A stretch of 26,430 nucleotides of DNA, from the NCBI GenBank assembly GCA_038209745.1, contig JBBQXJ010000066.1:1-26430 (forward strand). Reading direction: 5' to 3'. A model generated the notes under the pieces. The model was not told the origin of the DNA and ran no database searches. It saw nothing but the letters and a program-made list of their open reading frames with translations. Below are positions 8,511 through 23,044 of the stretch, in pieces. Position 1 is the first letter of the stretch; the number at the start of each line of letters is the position of its first letter. The translations under genes and the position numbers were made by a program. Source of the stretch: Verrucomicrobiota bacterium. GTDB taxonomy: Bacteria; Verrucomicrobiota; Verrucomicrobiia; Limisphaerales; CANJSG01.

Positions 8511-9490
8511 TGCTCCCCGAAAGTTGAGCCATTTGCTATGAGAGTCTGAGGCGCGGAAGCGCCACCGAGACTCGAAGCATGAAACGGAAACGACACAGAC
8601 CCGAAGAGATCATCAAGAAGCGGCGCGAAGCGGCGGCGCTGCTGGCCGGAGGCCAGAGAGTGGAGGCGGTAAGCAAGATGCTGGAAGTGAGCGTGCCGAC
8701 CTACCACCGATGGAAGGAGGAATACGGCGGAGCCAAGGAAGAAACGGTCAAACGGCTCAAAGCGCTGGAGAAGGAGAACGCCCAGCGCAAGAGGCGGGTG
8801 GCCAACCAGGTGCTGGACCTCTCGATCATGAAGGAGGGGGCGGAGGGAAAATGGTAGGCCGGGAGCGCCGACGCCAGGCCGTGCAACAAACGCGGCAACA
8901 GGTGGACGTCAGCGAACGCCGGGCCTGCCAGACGCTGGGCCAACCCCGGGCCACCCAACGCTACCAGCTGCCTCGGGCCCAGCGAAGCCGGCACCCAACG
9001 GCTCAAAGCCGAACGGGTCGACCCCGTGTGGAGCTACGACTTCGTCTTCGCCCAGACCGAGGACGGACGGCGGCTCAAGTAGCTGCCGATCTGCGACGAG
9101 TTCACCCGCGAACTCGTGGCGCTGGAAGTCGAGCGGACGATGGAAGCCAAGGACGTGATCCGCATCCTCGACCAAGCCGTGACCGCGCGGGAAGGTTCCC
9201 AAGTAAATCCGCAGCGACAACGGCCCCGAATTCGTGGCCGCCGCCGTGCAGGGCTGGATCGCCCGGAGAGGGTTAAAGACCCTCTATATCAAACCCGACA
9301 GCCCGTGGCAGAACGCGGACAGCGAAAGCTTCAACAGCCGCTTCCGCGACGAGTTCCTGAACCGGGAAGCCTTCGCGTCGTTGCTGGAGGCGAAAGTCCT
9401 CGGCGAAGAACACCGGCAGTGGCACAACCCAGGCCGGCCCCGCTCGTTCTTGGACGACCAGACCCCCGAAGAATACGCGCAGCGCAGCCA
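8511..9490 (+). mobile_element. Degenerate IS3-family element (IS407-like), right end missing
   Basis: Left-IR-like TGCTCCCCGAAAGTTGAGCCA at 8511. orfA 8579..8857 (MKRKRHRPEEII...EGKW). orfB pieces SERRAC, VWSYDFV, DEFTRE, IRSDNGPEF, KPDSPWQN, ESFNSRFRDEFLN, with an in-frame TAG (9080-9082), frameshifts and an internal deletion. Confidence 0.9.
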
Positions 9491-9927
9491 TACGAACGCG
9501 AGATCCGTTTTGAAACCCGGAGCCATTCAAGGGCCATCAGTTCGAGGGTGCTTTCAGAGAAATACTGGGCACTTTCGCGAACGGCTGCGAAAAAAAAGCG
9601 TGGAGGCGTCGGAAGTTTAACCCGCTGGGAAATTTCGCCGGCTGTCGCGTCCATTCGGAACCCTCTGTCTGTGTGCCTTTTGCTTCGCCAGGTGGAAATA
9701 GGATTTTACGTGCCTATGCGAAGAATGACGAACTTTCCGTGGCTCTGAATCGCTATAAACCCATCAAACGCTGGCCCACCGCTGGGGATCCTCACGCGAC
9801 GGGCTTCGCAAAATATCGGCCTTGGCCGACGACGATGCTTTTCAGCGGAACAAGGATCGTCGAATTGTCCTAGCCTAGTCTACGCTGCGTCCACCAAAGC
9901 CGACACACCAACTACGCCGTGGCTAAT

Positions 9928-10248
9928 ATGAAACGATCCGAGATCTCAGGGCTGGACTGCATCGCCGCGCTGAAGGCGTTGGGTGAGGAGTCGCGGCTGC
10001 GCATCCTCCGTTTGCTGTTCGCCGAAGCCTTGAGCGTGTCGGAGATCACCGAGCGGCTCGGCCTCTCCCAATACAACGTCTCGAAGCATCTCCGGATCAT
10101 GCGCGAGGCCGGCCTGTTGGAATCGGAGAAGCAGGGCAAACTCCGTCTCCACCGAATCTCGGGGAACCTGAAGAAACAGGCTTCGGCCAACGACAACGTC
10201 CTCGACTTGGGTTGCTGCACCTTCCGGCTCGACAAGCTGCCCGTCTGA
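9928..10248 (+). CDS. ArsR/SmtB-family transcriptional regulator with a C-terminal Cys-Cys pair
   Basis: LKALGEESRLRILRLL, wHTH LSVSEITERLGLSQYNVSKHLRIMREAGLL, C-terminal LDLGCC. Start at ATG 9928 or GTG 9919. Confidence 0.92.
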   Translation: MKRSEISGLDCIAALKALGEESRLRILRLLFAEALSVSEITERLGLSQYNVSKHLRIMREAGLLESEKQGKLRLHRISGNLKKQASANDNVLDLGCCTFRLDKLPV

Positions 10249-10290
10249 CCCCGGTTTTCGGTTGCATTCCGGAACTCTCGTATGCACGTA

Positions 10291-10306
10291 TTCGCATGTA
10301 TGCGAA
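10291..10306. promoter_or_regulatory. Palindromic candidate operator at the start of the pstS-like gene
   Basis: Perfect 7-2-7 inverted repeat TTCGCAT-GT-ATGCGAA, overlapping ATG 10300 and lying just downstream of the arsR-like gene. Confidence 0.5.
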
Positions 10307-11160
10307 CGTTGTCCCGATGGATGGTTGGTATCGGAGTGCTTGCTGTTTGGCTCGCGTCTCCAAGCCGGTCGCTCGCCGCGACCCTGAAGATCAACGGATC
10401 CACCACGGTCAATCTGCCCGTGGCCGAAGCGGCCGAAGTCCTGCGAGCGGAACGCAAGATGGACATCCAGGTGGACACCCAAGGGGGAAGTTCCGGCGGC
10501 ATCTCGGCGTTGGGCGACGGGCTCGTGCAGATGGGCATGTCCTCGAAGCACCTGACGGCGACCGACCGCACCAAATATCCAAAAGTTCGGTTCAAAGAAA
10601 TCCACGTGGGCGAGGACGCGGTTGCTCTGGTGGTGTCCCGAGACGTCTGGGAGTCGGGCCTGCGGGCGTTGACCAAGACGCAGGTGCGGGACATCTACGA
10701 AGGCCGGACCGACAACTGGAAGCAGGTTGGCGGGCCGGATCGGCGGATCGCGTTCTTCAACAAGGAACCAGGACGCGGCACGTGGGAGGTGTTCGTCATT
10801 TGGCTGTATGGAAACCCAAAGACGGCTCCCGCCGTCAATTTCCTGGAAGTGGGAGGCAACGAGGAAACGAGGAGCAAGGTGGCGTCGACGCGGGGCGCCA
10901 TGTCGCAGCTGTCGTCGTCCTGGGCGGATGGCAAGACCGTGTTCGCTCTCGGGCTCACGGACGAATCGGGCCAGACCATCGAGCCGACCGCTGCGACCAT
11001 CGCGACGCACAAATATCCTATGAGCCGTCCGCTCTTCCTTCTGACCAACGGCGAGCCGAAGGACGAGGCAAAACAGTTCGTCGACTTCATGTTGAGCGCA
11101 CCGGGCCAGGCCCTGGTGAGGAAGCACGGCTATCTCTCCCTCGATGAGTTGAAGCAATGA
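10300..11160 (+). CDS. pstS: PstS-like periplasmic oxyanion-binding protein of an ABC importer, with a divergent binding motif
   Basis: Sec signal ending SLA-A; INGSTTV, GGSSGG, MGMSSK, NWKQVGG, YPMSRPLF, FVDFMLS..GQ. KEPGRGT replaces R-x-x-GSGT. Alternative start ATG 10282. Confidence 0.85.
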   Translation: MRTLSRWMVGIGVLAVWLASPSRSLAATLKINGSTTVNLPVAEAAEVLRAERKMDIQVDTQGGSSGGISALGDGLVQMGMSSKHLTATDRTKYPKVRFKEIHVGEDAVALVVSRDVWESGLRALTKTQVRDIYEGRTDNWKQVGGPDRRIAFFNKEPGRGTWEVFVIWLYGNPKTAPAVNFLEVGGNEETRSKVASTRGAMSQLSSSWADGKTVFALGLTDESGQTIEPTAATIATHKYPMSRPLFLLTNGEPKDEAKQFVDFMLSAPGQALVRKHGYLSLDELKQ

Positions 11161-12065
11161 AAGCGGCGGGTTGGAAACGGCGGCTTACGCCCACGCGGCT
11201 TCTCGCCTACGGGTTCAGCGCGCTGACGCTGGCCATTGTTGGCTCGGCGCTCGCGATGTTCCTTTGGCAGAGCTTTCCGGTGTGGCGACACGAGGGGCTA
11301 GGCTATCTCACAGGCAAGCAGTGGCACTACCGGGGGCAGCAATTTGGCGCGTTGCCCATGATCTATGGCAGCGTCGTGGTCTCCGTATTGGCTCTTTTGT
11401 TGGCTGCGCCGATAGGAATCGGGACTGCCGTCTTCGCCGTCGAAGTGGTTCCGGGCAGACTTCGGATCGCGCTCAAGATTCTGGTCGAGCTGCTCTCAGG
11501 AATCCCATCCGTGGTCTACGGGCTGCTGGGGATCCTCTTCCTGCGGAACTGGGTCTACACCGCGTTCGAGCGGTTCGATCCCCTGAGCGGCGACACCTTG
11601 TTGACGGCGTCCCTGCTGCTCGCGGTGATGATCCTCCCGACCACCATGACGCTCAGCGAGGACGCGCTGCGCGGGGTTCCCAACGCCCAGCGGATCGCGG
11701 CCAGAGGCCTTGGCCTGACCAGGGCCGAAACCGTCTTTTCCGTCACGCTGCCACAGGCCGCGCCGGGCATTGTCTCGGCCGTCCTGCTCGGGCTGGGGCG
11801 GGCATTGGGCGAAACCATCGCCGTCTTCCTCGTGGTGGGCCGTCAGGACAACCAATGGCCTTCGAATCTGTTTTCGCTGCGCCCGCTGATAGAGGGAGGC
11901 CAGACGCTGACCAGCAAGCTGGGCGGTTCCGAGACGAACATCGCCTTCGGAGATCCTCTTCACTGGGCCGCGATCGTGGGGCTCGGCCTGATCCTGTTCG
12001 CTCTGACCGCGGCGGCGACTTTGGCCAGCCTCTGGTTTGGAGCCCGAAGGAGGGACGATGCGTAG
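11157..12065 (+). CDS. pstC: PstC-like ABC permease
   Basis: FGALPMIYGS, ELLSGIPSVVYGLLG, MILPT..TLSEDALRGVP, LGLGRALGETIAV. ATGA overlap with the pstS-like stop. Confidence 0.92.
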   Translation: MKAAGWKRRLTPTRLLAYGFSALTLAIVGSALAMFLWQSFPVWRHEGLGYLTGKQWHYRGQQFGALPMIYGSVVVSVLALLLAAPIGIGTAVFAVEVVPGRLRIALKILVELLSGIPSVVYGLLGILFLRNWVYTAFERFDPLSGDTLLTASLLLAVMILPTTMTLSEDALRGVPNAQRIAARGLGLTRAETVFSVTLPQAAPGIVSAVLLGLGRALGETIAVFLVVGRQDNQWPSNLFSLRPLIEGGQTLTSKLGGSETNIAFGDPLHWAAIVGLGLILFALTAAATLASLWFGARRRDDA

Positions 12066-12909
12066 GGCGAAAAACGTGCTGTTCGTCGCCACGACCGCCG
12101 GATGCGCGGTGCTGTCCTGTGGAGTGTTGCTGGCCATCGTTGGCGCCGTTCTCAGTCGGGGATTCCATGCGGTGAGCTGGGGCTTTCTCACCGAGCAGAT
12201 CCGCCTGGTAGGGGCCGATGGCGGGATTTTCTACAACCTGATCGGAACCCTCATTCTGATCACCACCGCGCTGGTGGTTTGCACGCCGTTCGCGCTCGGG
12301 ATCGGCCTGCTCTGCGGCGTGTATTGGAGGCGGAGCCGTTGGCGGCGCGGTCTGGTGTTTCTTCTTTATCTGCTGAACGGCGTGCCTTCGATCCTGTTGG
12401 GTCTTCTCGGGCTGATGGTCTTCGTGAAGTATCTGGGGTGGGGCAAATCCTGGCTCGCGGGTGGAATCATCCTCGGGGCGATGATCCTTCCTTCCGTCGC
12501 AATCGCTCTGATCGAACGCATCGATGGACTCCCGGCGAAATACGCCGAAGCGGCGGCGGGCCTCGGACTGAGCCCCGGCCAGATCATCTGGTCGGTCATC
12601 GTGCCACAAAGCCTCAACGGACTGGTCACGGGATTGCTTTTGGGCTTGGCCCGGGCGGCTGGCGAAACCGCCCCCATCATGTTCACGGCGACGATCTTTG
12701 CGGGGGCCACTCTGCCCCACGAAATCAAGGAAAGCCCCGTTCTCTCGTTGCCCTACCACATCTTCGTATTGGCGCAGGACTCCTTCGATCCGCAGGTCGC
12801 GGGGAAGCTTTGGGGCACCGCGCTCGTCCTGCTGGGCATGGTTTTTATTCTCAGCCTCGCCGCGCTGCCCGTCCGCCTGCGGACCCGCGAGGAGGCGCAG
12901 CATCCCTGA
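12058..12909 (+). CDS. pstA: PstA-like ABC permease
   Basis: GGIFYNLIGT, LNGVPSILLGLLG, EAAAGLG, LARAAGETAPIMFT, LSLPYHIF. Overlaps the pstC stop. Confidence 0.92.
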   Translation: MRRAKNVLFVATTAGCAVLSCGVLLAIVGAVLSRGFHAVSWGFLTEQIRLVGADGGIFYNLIGTLILITTALVVCTPFALGIGLLCGVYWRRSRWRRGLVFLLYLLNGVPSILLGLLGLMVFVKYLGWGKSWLAGGIILGAMILPSVAIALIERIDGLPAKYAEAAAGLGLSPGQIIWSVIVPQSLNGLVTGLLLGLARAAGETAPIMFTATIFAGATLPHEIKESPVLSLPYHIFVLAQDSFDPQVAGKLWGTALVLLGMVFILSLAALPVRLRTREEAQHP

Positions 12910-13721
12910 TGAAAACCCCGGATCCATTGCTTGAAGCGCGAGGCCTGACGGTGACGGTCGGTGGCAGGACGATTCTGCGCGACGTCGATCTGAAGGCCGT
13001 CCGCCACCGGGTCGTGGGGATCATCGGACAGTCGGGCGCCGGCAAGAGCACGCTGTTGAAGTGTCTCAACCGCCTGATCGAACTGGATCCGCGCTACACC
13101 TTGACGGGAGATGTTCGACTCGACGGTCTCTCCATCTATGGCGCCGGAGTCGATGTGGAGGCGCTTCGCGCCCGCGTCGGGATCCTCTTCCAGCAGCCCG
13201 TCGTCTTTCCCCGGAGCATTTTCCAAAACGTGCTGTTCGGCGTGCGCCATCACGGAAAGGTGCCTCGGCGCAACTGGCCGGAGGTCGCCGAGCGCGCCCT
13301 CGAAGAAGTGACCCTGTGGAACGAAGTCAAAGACCGTCTCCACGATTCGGCCCTGCGTCTTTCCGTGGGCCAGCAACAGCGGCTCTGTCTTGCCCGAACG
13401 CTGGCGGTCGGTCCCGAGGTGATCCTGATGGACGAGCCCACCAGCGCGCTCGACCCGCGCTCCGTCGCCGCGATCGAGGAATTGATCCTGCGGCTGAAAG
13501 CCACCCGCACCGTCGTTCTCGTGACCCACAACCTGGAACAGGCCCGCCGGGTCGCGGACACCCTCGTCTGTCTCTGCGTCCGCGACGGAGCCGGAGAGAT
13601 CGCGGAATCCGGATCTTGCGCCGATGTCCTGACCCATCCCCGGTGCTCCGAGACCATTCATTTTCTGGAATCGGAGGGCCGCTCAAGCCTTCAAACCGAC
13701 AGTTCCCTCAAGAAAGGCTGA
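12909..13721 (+). CDS. pstB: PstB-like ABC ATPase
   Basis: ATG 12909 in a TGATG overlap. Walker A GQSGAGKST, CLNRL, LFQQP, signature LSVGQQQRLCLAR, Walker B ILMDEPTSALDP, VTHNLEQARRVAD. Confidence 0.92.
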   Translation: MKTPDPLLEARGLTVTVGGRTILRDVDLKAVRHRVVGIIGQSGAGKSTLLKCLNRLIELDPRYTLTGDVRLDGLSIYGAGVDVEALRARVGILFQQPVVFPRSIFQNVLFGVRHHGKVPRRNWPEVAERALEEVTLWNEVKDRLHDSALRLSVGQQQRLCLARTLAVGPEVILMDEPTSALDPRSVAAIEELILRLKATRTVVLVTHNLEQARRVADTLVCLCVRDGAGEIAESGSCADVLTHPRCSETIHFLESEGRSSLQTDSSLKKG

Positions 13722-13723
13722 CC

Positions 13724-16228
13724 ATGTCGAAACTGTCCCGTCGCGACTTCCTCAAAGCCGCCGCCATCACCTCGGCGACCCTTCCCGCCGCGACGTTGTT
13801 GAGCCAAACAAAGTCGCTCGCAGCCACAGCCCCGGACAACCCTACCAGCAAGTCGGTTTCCCATGGATTCGACTTCACCCGCCAGTCCGCCGCGTTGCAG
13901 CCGGACAAGGTGGTCGACAGCGCCTGCCAGTTCTGCAACTCGCTCTGCCGCCTGAAAGTCCACCTCAAGGACGGGCGCATCATCGAGGTGCGCGGCGAAC
14001 CCGCCGACCCCGTCCAGGCGGGCGGTCTCTGCGTCAAGGGCGAGACCATGATGACCCAGCTGGTCTACAACCGGTTCCGCCTGACCCGCCCCATGAAGCG
14101 CGTCTCGGGCGAGAAGGGTTCGGCCGACTCCAAGTTTGAACCGGTGTCATGGGATGAAGCCCTCGACATCGTCGCGAAGAAGTTTCTCGCTCTGCGGGAC
14201 GCCGGTGAAGCCCGGGCAATCGCCAACAAGACGTCGGGGCGCCTGCCCCGCGGCACCGGTTCTGTCGTGGGCCGGTTGTTCACCCTGCTGGGAAGTCCGA
14301 ACGACACGGACGTCGGACCCGTGTGCAACGACGCCGGCGGGAACGCGCTGGCCTGGACCTTCGGTCTCGGCAATTTCACCAACGGCTACGGCGTGGATGG
14401 CGCGACGGGCCAAGAAGACCTGGGTTCGGCGAAGTTCTTCCTCTTTCTCGGCACCAACCAGGCGGAGACCCATCCGGTCACGTTCGAGTATCTGCTGCGC
14501 GAGCGCGCCAAAACCGGAGCCAAACTGGTCGTGGTCGATCCCCGGCTGACGCCGACCGGCGCCCAGGCGGACGATTGGTTGGCGCCCAAACCCCAGACCG
14601 ACATGGCGCTCGTGCTGGCCATGCTCCATCACATCGTCGAGCGGGAACTGCACGACAAGGCGTTCGTTGCCCAGTGGGTCGTGGGTTTCGAGGAACTACG
14701 CGCCCATCTCAAGGAGAAGAACTATACCCCGGAGTGGGCCGAATCCGTGAGCGGCGTCGCGGCCGCGACCATTCGCCGGATCGCCGGGCAATACGCGACG
14801 AGCAAGCCCGCCGCGATCTTCTGCAACGCGGGGATTTCGCATCAATTGAACGCCTTCGACACCTACCGCTGTTTGGCCTTCTTGGCGGCCATCACGGGAA
14901 ACGTCGGGATCAACGGAGGCGGTTGCAATTTCATGCACAACACGTGGCCCGGCGGGTTGAACCTGCCGCCCGTCAAAGGCACGACGCCGAAGAAGGACGT
15001 GGCCTTGCCCGTGGGACCGGACTACTTCGCCGAGTCCATTCTCAGCGGGAAGCCCTACCGGCTTCGGGCCATCGTCACCCAGGGCAATCCGATCCTCGGC
15101 AGCGCGAACACCGGCAAGGTCAAAGACGCGTTCCGCAAGCTGGAGTTCTACGTCTACACCGGTCTTTTCATGGAGGAGGCGGCCTACTATGCCGACATCA
15201 TTCTCCCGGCCTGCAGCGGCTTCGAGATGGAGACGGTCTACATGCGCCGCGACGACCGCGCGATCCGCTGGCAGGAGCAGGCCGTGCCCCGCGTCGGCGA
15301 ATCGAAGCCCGACTGGGAAATGTGGATCGACCTCGGGCGTGCCATGGCGAGGCACGACACCAGGAATCCACCCAACTACTGGACCGACAATTTGGCGGAA
15401 GAATGGAGGGACTATCGCAACCTGTGGGACGTCTTCGTGGGGAACACGCCCGGAATGGGCGGAATGACTCGCGACCGGATGTCGGCTCGCACCGAGCCGT
15501 TGCGTTGGCCCTGCCCGACCGTGCAGCACCCCGGCGTCAGCACCCTCTATCTGGACCATGCTTCCTGGTATGAAGCCGCCGTGGCGCTGGATCCGGCGAA
15601 CGCGGGCAAACGGTTCCTGACGCCGAGCGGCAAGATCGAGCTCGCCACTCCCGCCATCCAAGAAAAGCTGGCATCGGCGGGCCACTTCGCGCTGCCAATT
15701 TTCTACACCCATCCAGAAGTCACCGGCCGAAATCCCGGCATCGAATACCTCGATCAATTCGTCCGCAATCCGGTCAATCCCCAGGCGCTGACCCCCACGG
15801 TGAAAATTGGCGGGCTGTCGGATGGCGAGGTCCACCGGCGCTTCCCGCTGATGGGCATGATCGGCCGACCCAGCGTCGTCCACTTCGCCGGCGTGACCCA
15901 GTGGACCTATATCGGCAAACAGATGAACGGTCTGCGTCTGGTTCAGATTCACCCCGCGGCCGCTCAACGAGCAGGCATCCAGGACGGTGACAAGGTGGTG
16001 GTCGAAAGCCCGCAGGGTTCCGTCACCGGCACGGCTCTCTTCTGGGAAGGGATCCGGGAAGACACCATTTTCGTCCCAAATACGTTCGGCCCGATGCAGA
16101 GGATGGGCGACGAGTTCGGCGTGCCGGCCTATGAGCCCGCGAACACCCTCGTGAGCGACCGCTATTTCGACAACCTCTCCGGCCAGCAAGCCTACAAGTG
16201 CTTCGCCTGTCTCGTCCGGAAGGCGTGA
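13724..16228 (+). CDS. Tat-exported molybdopterin (Mo/W-bisPGD, DMSO reductase superfamily) oxidoreductase catalytic subunit, 834 aa, substrate unknown
   Basis: ATG 13724, 2 nt after the pstB stop. Twin-arginine signal SRRDFLK. [4Fe-4S] motif C-X2-C-X3-C-X27-C-V-K (CQFCNSLC...LCVKG). Also RLTRPM, SWDEAL, GTNQAETHP, VVVDPR, ADIILPA, FLTPSGKIE and the C-terminal molybdopterin-binding domain (IHPAAAQRAGIQDGDKVVVES). Confidence 0.93.
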   Translation: MSKLSRRDFLKAAAITSATLPAATLLSQTKSLAATAPDNPTSKSVSHGFDFTRQSAALQPDKVVDSACQFCNSLCRLKVHLKDGRIIEVRGEPADPVQAGGLCVKGETMMTQLVYNRFRLTRPMKRVSGEKGSADSKFEPVSWDEALDIVAKKFLALRDAGEARAIANKTSGRLPRGTGSVVGRLFTLLGSPNDTDVGPVCNDAGGNALAWTFGLGNFTNGYGVDGATGQEDLGSAKFFLFLGTNQAETHPVTFEYLLRERAKTGAKLVVVDPRLTPTGAQADDWLAPKPQTDMALVLAMLHHIVERELHDKAFVAQWVVGFEELRAHLKEKNYTPEWAESVSGVAAATIRRIAGQYATSKPAAIFCNAGISHQLNAFDTYRCLAFLAAITGNVGINGGGCNFMHNTWPGGLNLPPVKGTTPKKDVALPVGPDYFAESILSGKPYRLRAIVTQGNPILGSANTGKVKDAFRKLEFYVYTGLFMEEAAYYADIILPACSGFEMETVYMRRDDRAIRWQEQAVPRVGESKPDWEMWIDLGRAMARHDTRNPPNYWTDNLAEEWRDYRNLWDVFVGNTPGMGGMTRDRMSARTEPLRWPCPTVQHPGVSTLYLDHASWYEAAVALDPANAGKRFLTPSGKIELATPAIQEKLASAGHFALPIFYTHPEVTGRNPGIEYLDQFVRNPVNPQALTPTVKIGGLSDGEVHRRFPLMGMIGRPSVVHFAGVTQWTYIGKQMNGLRLVQIHPAAAQRAGIQDGDKVVVESPQGSVTGTALFWEGIREDTIFVPNTFGPMQRMGDEFGVPAYEPANTLVSDRYFDNLSGQQAYKCFACLVRKA

Positions 16229-16242
16229 TCCCAGGGACTCGG

Positions 16243-16449
16243 ATGACCATTGAGATTTTCAATCGTGAAGACCGCTCTGCGGAGCTCGTGGAGCTCGTGG
16301 AGCTGATCCACTTGCCGCGCGCAGGCGAAAAGTTCATCGCCCGCAACGGTAAAGAATTCTTGGTGTTCCGCGTTGTCCATACACCCTTCGACTCCAACCG
16401 GTCCGTGCGGATCATCGTGGGAATTCGGGGCTCCTTTGCTGAAAGTTGA
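16243..16449 (+). CDS. Small hypothetical protein (68 aa), probable last gene of the operon
   Basis: ATG 14 nt after the molybdoenzyme stop, with AGGGA upstream. MTIEIFNRED...HLPRAGEKFI..GKEFLVFRVVH has globular, beta-rich composition. No family recognised. Confidence 0.5.
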   Translation: MTIEIFNREDRSAELVELVELIHLPRAGEKFIARNGKEFLVFRVVHTPFDSNRSVRIIVGIRGSFAES

Positions 16450-20879: not shown

Positions 20880-21616
20880 TCAACCGCCGCACTCCGCCCA
20901 CGTCAGCCCGAAGCGCGCCAGATACTTGTTCAGGCGATCCGCGTCGTTGGTGTGTTTGCGGCCGAGGCGGGAGACGCGAAACAGCTCCCGCCCGGCGTCG
21001 GACTGGTTCTTCGACTCGCGGCAGACACGGATGACGTAGGCGAGCTGCGCCTGGTCGAAGGGATCGATCTCCGCCAATCGCTTGGGCCCGAGCACCGAGT
21101 TTAGCAACTCCGCTTCGTCGTCCTCCATCTCCGGTTCCGACCACGCGTCGCGCAGGCGAGTGAGCTCGTCGTCGAGGACGGCGGACGTGATCCGGCCACC
21201 TTCGGCCAAGGTGGCCATGCGGGTGATGGCGGCGTTCAGGTCCCGGAAGTTCGCGCTCCAGCGGGCTTCCGGTGCATGGGCAAACTTCAGAAAGGCCGAC
21301 CTCGCTTCCTTGCTCAGCGTCACCCGCGTGCCGTGCTTGCGGGCGAACTGCTCCAGCTCGTAGTCGAGGTTCGGCTCGATGTCTTCCGCCCGCTCGCGCA
21401 AGCCCGGAAGGCGAAAGGTCCAAAGGTTGAGCCGCGCCATCAGATCCTCGCGGAAACGGCCTTCACGCACGCGCTCCTGGAGATCGCGGTTCGTGCCGGT
21501 GATGAGCTGGAAGTCGCTCGTCACTTCATGGTCGCTGCCGAAGGGCGGGAAGCACTTCTCCTCCAGCGCGCGCAAAAGAATCGCCTGTTCGTCCAGGCCC
21601 AGTTCGCCCACTTCGG
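20880..21616 (-). pseudogene. rtcR: 5'-truncated RNA-repair sigma54 activator RtcR (C-terminal half of the AAA+ domain plus HTH)
   Basis: EVGELGLDEQAILLRALEEK, SDFQLITGTNRDL, FREDLMARLNLWTF, EDIEPNLDYEL, WSANFRDL, RMATLA, IDPFD, NDADRLNKYLARFGL. The N-terminal CARF domain, Walker A and GAFTGA are replaced by IS3 sequence at ~21616. Confidence 0.9.
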
Positions 21617-22698
21617 CCTGAACGAAAGCCTGCTCTTCGCCTGGCGCAAGCTCCTGCCCCCGCCGACGGGGGAGGGCGGGAAGGCCCTTGGCCTCCACCC
21701 TCCGGTCCCAGCTCGAGGACGCCCGGCGGGAGATTCGTCACCTCCGTGAGCAGCGCGACATTTTAGAAAAACGTTGGGCATCCTCTCCGAAGCACCGTCG
21801 AACGCCATGAACGGGTTCACGCGATGAGAAACGACCACGCCATGGCGCGGCTCTGCGAGAACCGCCTGGTCTCTCCCAGCGGCGTCTACGACGGGACCGA
21901 CGCCGTTTGGCTCCCGGCTTCCGGGCCCCGGAGGATGAGGCGCTGGCCGAGCAGATCACCGTCATCCACGCCGAAAGCCGCCGGACCTGCGGCTCGCCGA
22001 GGATCGTCGACGAACTCCGCCCGCGCGGGAGCCGGCATGGACGCAACCGCATTGCCCGCCTCATGAAAAGCCGGGGCCTCTGTGGACGCCGAAGAGCCGC
22101 CACCGCGTCCAGACCACCGACAGCCGCCACGGACCATCCCGTCGCCCCCAAATCGTCCGCAAGCCACGGCACCCAACCAGATCCGGGTCGCCGCCCTCAC
22201 CTGCATCCCCACCGCCGAAGGCTGGCTCTATCTGGCCGGCGTGATGGATCTCCACAGCCGCAAGATCTTGGGCTGGGCCATGGGCCCGACCATCGACTCC
22301 GCGCTCGTCCCCTCCGCCCTTTCGATGGCGACCCTGCACCGCACCCCGCCACCGGGCCTGCTCTTCCACTCCGACCGCGCCGTCCGATACGCCGCCGGGA
22401 ACTTCCGCGCCGCCCTCCAGGCCGCCGGCCTGCTCGCCTCCATGAGCCGACGCGGCAACCGCCACGACAACGCCGCCATAGAAAGCTTCTGGAGCACCCT
22501 CAAACCCGAGCTCGTCTGCCCCCGCCAGTCCGACACCCGCCTCCAAGCCAAAGCCGAGATCTTCTGGCTCCATCGAAGCCTTCTACAACCGCCTCCGCCG
22601 CCACACCTCCCTCGCCGGCCTCTCCCCGGCCAACTTCGAACGCCTAAACAACTAACCAACACCCCCTTTTCCCTGTCCGCTTTTTCGAACCAGGCCCA
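21616..22698 (+). mobile_element. Degenerate IS3-family element, left end deleted
   Basis: orfA tail GLNESLLFAWRK...REQRDILEKTLGILS. orfB pieces GSPRIVDEL, RIARLM, APNQI, TAEGWLYLAGVMDLHSRKILGW, FHSD, SMSRRGNRHDNAAIESFWSTLK, with frameshifts. Right-IR-like TGTCCGCTTTTTTCGAACCAGGCCCA ends at 22698. Confidence 0.88.
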
Positions 22699-23044
22699 CA
22701 GGTGCCGTTTTTGGTCCAGCGGCGGAAGACGTGGTAGACGGTCTGCCAAGATGGGAAGTCCTTTGGCATCTGCCGCCATTGCCAGCCGGTTTTGGTCAGG
22801 TAGAAGATCGCGTCGAGGATCCAGCGCAAGCAGGTGCGGGAGCGTCCCTTCTTGGAGGGCTTGGGCAGAAGGGGCTCGATCCCGGCCCATTGGCGTCGGT
22901 GAGACCGCTCTCGAAAACGGTGTTTTTCATCGCTCCAAACACCGCTTTCGCTACGGTTCTGAGCCGTTCGTCACCCGCCGTTCGACAAGCTTTTTCCTGT
23001 AACAGGCCGCTTTTATCGGGATTCTATCTTTTTCAGACGGGCTC
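22699..23044 (-). mobile_element. IS5-family element, left-end fragment (copy 1), interrupted by the IS3 element
   Basis: IR GAGCCCGTCTGAAAA at 23044 reading leftward. Transposase ATG 22930: MKNTVFESGLTDA-[frameshift]-QWAGIEPLLP...RWILDAIFYLTKTGWQWRQMPKDFPSWQTVYHVFRRW (DUF4096-type N-terminus). Confidence 0.88.

Follow-up and report, generated by a model that had tools for sequence, protein, structure and literature searches.

A candidate arsenic-responsive module in a Verrucomicrobiota contig: an ArsR-type regulator, a Pst-like transporter and a stand-alone molybdoenzyme

Aio, Arr and Arx are, to our knowledge, the only molybdoenzyme families that serve today for inferring the redox cycling of arsenic from genomes and metagenomes, and each of them requires an iron-sulfur partner. 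Arsenic islands in which pst genes and phoU lie beside aioBA have been described (PMC3834237), and for Streptomyces lividans an arsenate-induced cluster, SLI_1077-1103, is tabulated by Cruz-Morales et al. 2016 (Table S6, PMC4943196). It includes a CTP-synthase-like protein (SLI1094), an 840-amino-acid (aa) "anaerobic dehydrogenase" (SLI1095), AroA-like and mutase genes (SLI1096 and SLI1097), a periplasmic phosphate-binding protein (SLI1099), a 603-aa permease (SLI1100), an ATPase (SLI1101) and ArsR-type regulators (SLI_1102 and SLI_1103); in the same work reverse transcription PCR (RT-PCR) indicated that SLI_1099 is induced by 500 µM arsenate with 3 µM phosphate (PMC4943196). Here we describe a locus at positions 9928-16449 of a 26,430-nucleotide (nt) stretch of DNA from a Verrucomicrobiota bacterium (contig JBBQXJ010000066.1; the whole stretch is called the window below), which carries genes for an ArsR-type regulator, an ATP-binding cassette (ABC) transporter resembling PstSCAB, and an enzyme of the molybdenum/tungsten bis-pyranopterin guanine dinucleotide (Mo/W-bisPGD) type.

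The ArsR-Pst-like-molybdoenzyme module is an intact, translationally coupled unit. It is real and arsenic-associated rather than an artefact, and it is not a characterised system. Tentatively, at a probability somewhat short of even, we regard it as an arsenic-responsive accessory module in which a periplasmic enzyme would act on an arsenic species and a Pst-derived importer would take up a pentavalent oxyanion. A known theme, that of arsenic islands in which a Mo-bisPGD enzyme occurs together with phosphate-type transport, would appear to be built here from a seemingly unstudied enzyme clade and binding-protein subfamily.

Layout of the locus

An earlier sequence-only reading of this DNA had proposed seven intact, co-oriented genes, and the open reading frame (ORF) list, Pfam and NCBIfam bear out both their coordinates and their domain content (Table 1). 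The tight junctions which it described from pstS to the enzyme are likewise present: pstS and pstC overlap by 4 nt (ATGA, from the ORF coordinates) while direct reading of the sequence gives an 8-nt overlap between pstC and pstA, TGATG between pstA and pstB, and a 2-nt spacer (TGA-CC-ATG) between pstB and the enzyme gene. The gaps on either side are 33 nt (arsR-pstS) and 14 nt (enzyme-orf68). Promoter and terminator consensus scans were uninformative, their matches being no commoner than in shuffled sequence, so that operon structure is read from the junctions. G+C at third codon positions is consistent with coding sequence, being 0.77-0.85 in the six genes with names and 0.70 for orf68. No phoU, phoB or phoR had been noticed, and no such Pfam domain occurs in the 24 window ORFs scanned, shorter ORFs lying outside the scan. 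Rfam gave 0 matches in the window, hence no molybdenum cofactor (Moco) riboswitch.

The short orf68 has a G+C content by codon position of 0.58/0.38/0.70 and no match in Pfam or NCBIfam. Since no relative was found near the enzyme in the 80 loci surveyed below (best tblastn E = 2.1), its membership of the system is not established.

Table 1. Genes of the locus, with coordinates in the window
Gene	Coordinates	Strand	Product and family matches
arsR	9928-10248	+	ArsR/SmtB-family repressor, 106 aa; probable trivalent-arsenic sensor; NF033788, Pfam HTH_5/HTH_20
pstS-like	10282-11160	+	Periplasmic substrate-binding protein, Sec signal, distinct PstS-derived subfamily; PBP_like_2 (3.7e-31)
pstC	11157-12065	+	PstC-type permease; TIGR02138, BPD_transp_1
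pstA	12058-12909	+	PstA-type permease; TIGR00974, BPD_transp_1
pstB	12909-13721	+	PstB-type ABC ATPase; TIGR00972, ABC_tran
Mo/W-bisPGD enzyme	13724-16228	+	Stand-alone enzyme, 834 aa, Tat signal; Molybdop_Fe4S4, Molybdopterin, Molydop_binding
orf68	16243-16449	+	68 aa; coding-like composition, no family match

The enzyme clade and its gene neighborhoods

The enzyme falls in the Mo/W-bisPGD (DMSO reductase) superfamily (PF00384, 167.8 bits; PF01568, 62.3 bits; PF04879, 58.8 bits; all above cut-off). Its FS0 four-cysteine motif (Cys68, Cys71, Cys75 and Cys103) is conserved in the clade alignment, and Cys201, which aligns with the Cys/Sec metal ligand of PsrA, of four formate dehydrogenases (FDHs) of the FdhF type and of ArrA, is probably the metal ligand. 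A twin-arginine motif, SRRDFLK, occupies residues 5-11, its SRR being invariant in 14 of 14 aligned relatives, which suggests export to the periplasm by the twin-arginine translocation (Tat) route; the Pfam TAT_signal profile scored 18.1 bits, below its cut-off of 22.7.

No NCBIfam equivalog cut-off was reached. The best score among the curated families was that of formate dehydrogenase alpha (TIGR01591, 308 bits against a cut-off of 666); PsrA/PhsA gave 279.7 bits against 694 [NF012032], ArrA 193 against 1600 [NF041714] and AioA 78 against 359 [TIGR02693]. The closest solved structures are all distant (E 1e-57 to 1e-45) and include Thermus PsrA [2vpw, 1.3e-57], FdhF-type FDHs, monomeric NapA and ArrA; acetylene hydratase is also among the solved relatives [2e7z, 3.6e-39]. 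Compared with FdhH, the enzyme has Asn202 after Cys201 where FDH has a histidine, and the "RG" of FdhH with Arg333 is an insertion relative to it; this histidine and Arg333 we take to be the catalytic residues of FDH. The (R/K)GRY motif of ArrA (RGRY) reads SGRL, one motif arginine being retained as Arg173. Invariant motifs specific to the clade are NKTSGRLPRG, GPVCNDAGG, FCNAGISHQ, GGGCNFMHNTWPG and a C-terminal KCFAC, none of which is found in the PsrA/PhsA/FDH relatives. Further clade-invariant cysteines lie at residues 367, 401, 597 and 826 (window 14822-14824, 14924-14926, 15512-15514 and 16199-16201); Cys367, Cys401 and Cys826 are clade-specific, except for a Cys at the 826 position in P0123, and Cys826 makes up a C-terminal CxxC together with Cys829, whose conservation extends more widely.

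The 80 loci surveyed (numbered from L001 on) are the best of 233 confirmed matches in a scan of species-representative genomes and, going by their record titles, are distributed over Cyanobacteria (35), Actinobacteria (15), Verrucomicrobia (14), Planctomycetes (13) and Acidobacteria (3). Across these five phyla the clade is tight, with 64-82% identity. In a word-indexed protein search 7,999 candidates were scored and 1,644 clusters proved to be related; the 120 best of these, 72-82% identical to the window enzyme (its own protein 100%), bear generic names only. In a HMMER scan of 1.84 billion representatives there was one full-length clade representative (63% identity) and then a drop to 44%, 43% and 38%; these nearest outsiders likewise lie under every curated family cut-off. 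A distant plasmid homolog, H3 (34% identity), was dropped for its unrelated betaine/oxygenase context. We found no functional characterisation of the family: NCBIfam gives none above cut-off, the relatives are generically named, and the literature found on SCO6820, SLI_1095, SCO6814-6816 and SLI_1099/1100 consists of omics papers and the 2016 genome-mining work. The clade is unnamed, strongly conserved, partnerless and Tat-signal-bearing.

A FastTree phylogeny of 71 rows was built after ten loci had been left out (eight with matches of <750 residues, two with a stop or X). It places the Cyanobacteria on one side of a branch and the Actinobacteria, apart from L001, in one clade. The window enzyme pairs with L001, adjoining the cyanobacterial clade and distant from most Verrucomicrobia. 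Its closest relative, L001 (CAYWMD010000081.1), shares 81% identity and comes from a contig of 61% G+C, possibly misbinned, in a metagenome-assembled genome titled Bifidobacteriaceae. Two copies of the enzyme (L020 and L034) occur on different contigs of Nostoc assembly DedQUE08 and do not share a sub-branch within the Nostoc clade.

When 3,111 neighboring ORFs from the 80 loci were clustered all against all and the representatives annotated, the commonest neighbors proved to be ArsR-like proteins (22 loci), PstS-like proteins, low-molecular-weight-phosphatase ArsC and PHO4/Pit transporters (10 loci each) and ArsM-like methyltransferases (8 loci). There is no universal or conserved partner gene, no neighbor family reaching more than 22 of the 80 loci. 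The enzyme had been called an orphan, and indeed no ferredoxin (Fer4), Rieske or cytochrome family was present among the annotated neighbor-cluster representatives.

By a stricter tblastn count, arsenic-specific genes (arsC, arsM, acr3, arsH, arsS or bsnMN-like) occur no farther than 6 kb from the enzyme in 23 of the 80 loci, and in 19 of the 67 with at least 6 kb of flank. The counts within this distance are ArsC 12, ArsM 9, ACR3 6, 5-enolpyruvylshikimate-3-phosphate synthase (EPSPS)-like 6, cofactor-independent phosphoglycerate mutase (iPGM)-like 6, ArsH 3 and ArsS 3; PHO4 (Pit-type) transporters adjoin the enzyme in seven loci and aquaglyceroporin genes in five. Loci with arsenic genes make up 9/15 in Actinobacteria, 7/14 in Verrucomicrobia, 6/35 in Cyanobacteria, 1/13 in Planctomycetes and 0/3 in Acidobacteria. 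The ArsH, ACR3 and ArsS representatives score above their NCBIfam cut-offs, and those of ArsM and ArsC have these families as best matches below cut-off. Placement of the enzyme in arsenic gene clusters is frequent but not universal.

The arrangements themselves are varied. Immediate, co-oriented neighbors of the enzyme are seen in L005 (ArsM-enzyme-ArsS), L039 (ArsM-enzyme-pstS-C-A-B-like) and L048 (enzyme-ArsR-PstS-ACR3-ArsH-ArsC), and L067 reads PHO4-ArsC-enzyme with ArsM on the opposite strand. In the NCBI annotation of a Streptomyces plasmid the order is arsR-ACR3-ArsO-enzyme, with Pst-like genes, arsC, trxAB and gpmI within 12 kb.

Several other neighbors were noted in passing. Some Nostoc loci (L018, L019 and L022) have a small gene directly 3' of the enzyme on the same strand; that on a Nostoc plasmid (L082, 11548-12045) is annotated as a GNAT N-acetyltransferase, and the L019 representative of a similar 165-aa cluster had no Pfam match at 1e-8 and no NCBIfam match at 1e-10. 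A CobW/COG0523-type GTPase lies near the enzyme in five loci (L036, L041 and L063-L065) and a "CTP synthase C-terminal region-related (seleno)protein", corresponding to SLI1094, in seven (L057, L062, L069, L074 and L078-L080); the best NCBIfam matches of both are described as selenoprotein-related.

The Pst-like transporter and the ArsR regulator

Of the four transporter subunits only PstC scores above its NCBIfam cut-off (TIGR02138, 233.9 bits against 196.45). PstA is just below (TIGR00974, 191.3 against 193.45), and PstB (TIGR00972, 279 against 343.2) and the PstS-like protein (TIGR02136, 165.8 against 206.6) are below. The closest solved structure to the binding protein is Clostridium perfringens PBP-1 [4gd5/4q8r, 1e-25], for which nine phosphate ligands are listed and in which a serine replaces the classical selectivity aspartate, phosphate being preferred over arsenate only ~150-fold (PMC5381212). 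The window protein retains seven of the nine ligands, with Lys in place of Arg125 and Arg in place of Ser129, and reads NKEPGRGT where PBP-1 has SREDGSGT. It also has the PBP-1 serine at the position of the selectivity aspartate, and a subfamily without this aspartate is a poor candidate for discriminating against arsenate.

Of the 120 best relatives of the binding protein 118 have the signature NKE[PS]GRGT, and KEPGRGT occurs in all eight enzyme-linked loci with the binding protein on the contig, in both Verrucomicrobia and Actinobacteria. It is absent from the canonical-type PstS of L001, L028 and L048; the pst genes of L001 are canonical in type, with 29-38% identity to those of the window. 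With its altered anion pocket the binding protein constitutes a subfamily apart, one that recurs with the enzyme. Two lone PstS genes of canonical type (L028, 13791-14819, and L048, 3209-4237), with no permeases, lie a short way downstream of the enzyme, inside ars operons of Cyanobacteria (ArsR-PstS-MIP or ACR3-ArsH-ArsC).

The sequence-only reading had proposed that adjacency of pstSCAB and arsR to the enzyme, if conserved across genera, would support a real system. A Pst-like system with at least 40% identity to that of the window does recur beside the enzyme, in 8 of the 80 loci (Verrucomicrobia L039, L047, L049 and L053; Phycisphaerales L066; Actinobacteria L077, L079 and L080), but this is a minority state, and outside the window the two are usually not in a single operon. 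The Pst-like genes lie upstream, downstream, divergent or convergent relative to the enzyme across these eight loci, and their linkage requires seven changes of state on the enzyme tree. Among 72,556 plasmids (tblastn, E <= 1e-25) the sole match to the binding protein is on a plasmid which also carries the enzyme.

The regulator is a member of the ArsR family (NF033788, 76.6 bits against a cut-off of 55). It lacks the helix-3 (ELCVCDL-type) cysteine site and has instead Cys11 and Cys95-Cys96 (GCC[TS]F). These are kept in nine of ten aligned rows, namely the window and eight enzyme-linked ArsR-like ORFs, L073 having only the C-terminal CC. The C-terminal site of Acidithiobacillus ferrooxidans ArsR presumably resembles this set without being identical to it. 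By analogy with known types of ArsR site, Cys11, Cys95 and Cys96 may bind As(III) or methyl-As(III).

Upstream of arsR, at 9830-9862, there is an 11-nt inverted repeat (91% complementary, arms separated by 11 nt) 66-98 nt from the start of the gene. We do not claim it as an ArsR operator; a pattern search with gaps of 9-17 nt, below the 19-nt spacing taken for the window, gave a single stray match, in L016, and none in the window.

Besides ordinary genes for KatG, a DUF1080-type hydrolase, an RlmN-like radical SAM protein and a glycoside hydrolase, the rest of the window has regulator and mobile-element genes that are broken. Decayed insertion sequence (IS) elements had been reported here. One is evident as a broken IS3-type transposase at 21907-23002, with HTH_21 (ORF 21907-22647) and the rve core (ORF 22082-23002) in different frames; the second supposed remnant, ORFs 8710-9276 and 9116-9748 upstream of arsR, had no Pfam match at 1e-5. 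At 20880-21698 on the minus strand lies a fragment of a sigma-54 activator covering profile positions 100-165 of the 168 of Sigma54_activat plus the AAA lid, its N-terminal part being absent.

Possible function and comparison with known systems

In the scheme that we tentatively prefer, the ArsR-type repressor would sense trivalent arsenic through Cys11, Cys95 and Cys96 and release the operon. The enzyme, folded with its cofactors in the cytoplasm, would be exported by way of its Tat signal and, acting alone in the periplasm, might oxidise As(III) or methylated As(III) to the pentavalent form, its single 4Fe-4S cluster passing the electrons on to a soluble acceptor of general type. Under arsenic stress the ABC system translated along with it, which is Pst-derived and has the observed pocket changes, would import the pentavalent tetrahedral oxyanion, arsenate and/or phosphate. 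Elsewhere the enzyme would be an exchangeable part of arsenic islands, in company with arsM, arsS, arsC, acr3, Pit-type transporters or arsonate-forming genes of the bsnMN type. Three substrate classes had been put forward from the sequence, arsenic or antimony, reduced phosphorus, and selenium or tellurium oxyanions; arsenic is the one which the neighborhoods favor and is the presumed substrate of the enzyme, and nothing was found in support of selenium or tellurium. We favor an oxidase of trivalent arsenic because most hosts of the clade are aerobes and because As(V) is what the Streptomyces pathway consumes.

A number of observations weigh against such a scheme. There is no conserved electron acceptor or donor gene nearby, so that no direction of reaction is backed by data. 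By its profile score (78 bits against 359) the enzyme is unrelated to AioA beyond the superfamily, and a single 4Fe-4S cluster of low-potential type would be unlike the known aerobic arsenite oxidase. Four of the five alignable arsenate contacts of ArrA are lost, Tyr166, His189, Ser190 and Lys198 being replaced by Leu, Val197, Gly198 and Gly206; these we take to be arsenate-contact residues, the last three lying around ArrA Cys193. Import of arsenate would be harmful unless it were processed, and the window has no arsC, arsM or bsn gene. An arsenic-specific gene within 6 kb is missing from 57 of the 80 loci and is found in only 6 of 35 cyanobacterial and 1 of 13 planctomycete loci, and these counts stand without a control set of random loci. 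In five Nostoc loci (L007-L009, L013 and L014) the context is one of phosphorus scavenging: the enzyme is flanked by two giant secreted proteins, the smaller (~1,600 aa) combining alkaline phosphatase, glycerophosphodiester phosphodiesterase (GDPD) and phytase-like domains and the larger (~1,850 aa) bearing phytase domains, and arsenic genes are absent from the 6 kb around it. Finally, membership of SLI1095 in the clade is suggested only by its length, annotation and a gene order matching L074 and L078-L081.

The alternatives, in our order of ranking, are a reductase of pentavalent (organo)arsenicals, a phosphate scavenger, a molybdenum or tungsten supply, phosphite oxidation and a non-redox enzyme. 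The foremost, which we hold to be unlikely although a serious contender, is that the enzyme reduces pentavalent arsenic in the periplasm with electrons from a donor of general type there, the transporter taking up or excluding its substrate; arsenate, methylarsonate, dimethylarsinate, trimethylarsine oxide and arsonates such as 2-hydroxyethylarsonate would be candidates. Its nearest solved or curated relatives (PsrA, PhsA, NapA, FdhF and ArrA) have a Cys/Sec ligand and work as reductases or reversibly, it adjoins the users of trivalent arsenic ArsM (9 loci) and ArsS (3 loci) as well as the aquaglyceroporin genes, and in Actinobacteria it adjoins genes making pentavalent arsonates. Yet most of the hosts are aerobes, the annotated neighbor clusters contain no quinol dehydrogenase or ferredoxin-like subunit, the ArrA contacts are not conserved, and extracellular reduction of arsenate would work against the bsnM-type reaction, which uses As(V). 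Less probable still is that the ABC system is a phosphate scavenger under arsenic control, securing phosphate in the face of arsenate and merely co-regulated with the enzyme. The score of PstC, the best matches of PstA and PstB to their own Pst families, the seven retained ligands, the Pit-type transporters adjoining the enzyme in seven loci and the described arsenic islands with pst genes (PMC3834237) agree with this proposal; the two replaced ligand residues, which include the only arginine and belong to a signature common to 118 of 120 relatives, do not, nor does the missing selectivity aspartate, which would make the protein poor at discriminating against arsenate. The 2 nt between the pstB stop and the enzyme start, and the finding of the only plasmid copy on an enzyme-bearing plasmid, also argue against mere co-regulation.

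Import of molybdate or tungstate for the cofactor of the enzyme, which the sequence-only reading had not considered, has in our estimate only a slim chance. Genes of the tup and mod systems occur beside other Mo/W enzymes, the transporter is tightly coupled to just such an enzyme, its altered pocket has an added arginine, its binding protein is of the PBP_like_2 fold family, to which tungstate-binding TupA presumably belongs, and it is present in a minority of loci, as an optional supply line would be. Against this, no molybdate- or tungstate-binding NCBIfam family is listed for the binding protein, the permeases match ModB and WtpB with much lower scores than PstC and PstA, there are two permeases of Pst type rather than one, no Moco riboswitch was found, and control is by ArsR, the Streptomyces homolog being arsenate-induced (PMC4943196). 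An equally slim chance attaches to extracellular oxidation of phosphite or hypophosphite with import of the resulting phosphate, the reduced-phosphorus proposal made earlier. It finds an echo in the Pst-like and Pit-type neighbors and the five phosphatase-flanked Nostoc loci only, apart from the best curated score, that of formate dehydrogenase alpha, whose X-H bond chemistry would be analogous; but hydride chemistry on phosphite is disfavored because the catalytic His and Arg of FDH are absent (Asn202, and a gap at Arg333), phosphite use does not call for arsM, arsS, arsH or acr3, and the neighbor clusters contain no ptx or htx gene. The chance is very slight that the enzyme acts in a non-redox manner on arsenic or another compound, like the monomeric acetylene hydratase, a further proposal absent from the earlier reading. 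Such a reaction would explain the missing redox partner in five phyla, Gram-positives included, and it accords with the lack of a conserved partner gene among the 80 loci and with acetylene hydratase being a solved relative. Acetylene hydratase is cytoplasmic, unlike this enzyme with its Tat signal, and there is no positive evidence for a hydration or hydrolysis substrate.

If we return to the arsenic-responsive module, a bolder form of it, doubtful but by no means negligible, would make the enzyme the founder of a fourth clade among molybdoenzymes that transform arsenic, and the first without a partner, carrying out extracellular arsenite oxidation or organoarsenical redox chemistry, and the Pst-derived system the first dedicated arsenate-accepting ABC importer. 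The clade would then act in aerobic soil and freshwater bacteria and in cyanobacteria, and the importer would feed As(V) either to arsonate (bisenarsan) synthesis or to reduction followed by methylation; roles would also follow for two unassigned genes of the bisenarsan cluster. The clade is abundant, unusually conserved across five phyla and present in arsenic islands, yet it is annotated merely as "molybdopterin-dependent oxidoreductase"; should it transform arsenic, surveys of soils, lichens and cyanobacterial mats are missing a major player. Were the enzyme unrelated to arsenic, its repeated linkage would still want explanation. The binding-protein subfamily, with its relocated arginine, is a natural test case for a change of anion specificity in phosphate-type receptors.

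The bisenarsan cluster of S. lividans and S. coelicolor (MIBiG BGC0001283) resembles the window in having an 840-aa dehydrogenase, a PstS-like protein, a permease, an ATPase and ArsR genes, and in Streptomyces loci L078-L081 the enzyme is accompanied by EPSP-synthase-like and iPGM-like genes, with a KEPGRGT protein also in L079-L081. The window, however, lacks bsnM, bsnN, bsnJ and the polyketide synthase (PKS), and in Streptomyces the permeases are fused and enzyme and transporter are separate units. In the bisenarsan section of a 2025 review, roles are given to bsnM, bsnN, bsnJ and the PKS only, and neither there nor in the 2016 paper is one assigned to the enzyme or the transporter; a 2026 preprint has ArsR-family regulators binding in the S. 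coelicolor cluster, with transporter-related genes as targets. The belief that no operon of this layout had been characterised thus holds in respect of function, but the same gene set was already listed, with no role given, in Table S6 of PMC4943196.

Elsewhere in the literature, a 2014 review (PMC4284471) calls it unclear how cyanobacteria oxidise arsenite outside the cell, and we found no literature on arsenite oxidation in Nostoc. An arsenic resistance review (PMC6205960) makes no mention of molybd, pstS or phosphate-binding. The "alternative arsenite oxidation" of Thioalkalivibrio was set aside, being due to SoeABC and not to the present clade.

PsrA/PhsA and FdhF, the best solved or curated matches, have domain order and ligand position in common with the window enzyme, which differs in having no PsrB/C-type neighbors and in not conserving the FDH His and Arg. 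With ArrAB and ArxAB it shares the superfamily, the Cys metal ligand, the Tat signal and a motif arginine as Arg173; unlike them it has SGRL instead of RGRY, and no ArrB/ArxB-type 4Fe-4S subunit is found among its annotated neighbor clusters. Canonical PstSCAB-PhoU systems agree with the window transporter in their four components, two permeases, a PstC above cut-off and seven of the nine PBP-1 ligands, whereas in the window an ArsR gene is adjacent instead of Pho regulators and no PhoU occurs in the scanned ORFs. The aioBA-pstSCAB/phoU arsenic islands, as described, likewise bring genes of phosphate-type transport together with a Mo-bisPGD enzyme that is Tat-exported and periplasmic. In AioA the cluster is of the 3Fe-4S kind and the metal has no ligand from the protein, whereas the window enzyme has its Cys201 ligand and four-Cys FS0 motif; and where those islands have a Rieske subunit, phoU and aioXSR, the window has none of these, its transporter and enzyme forming one translationally coupled unit.

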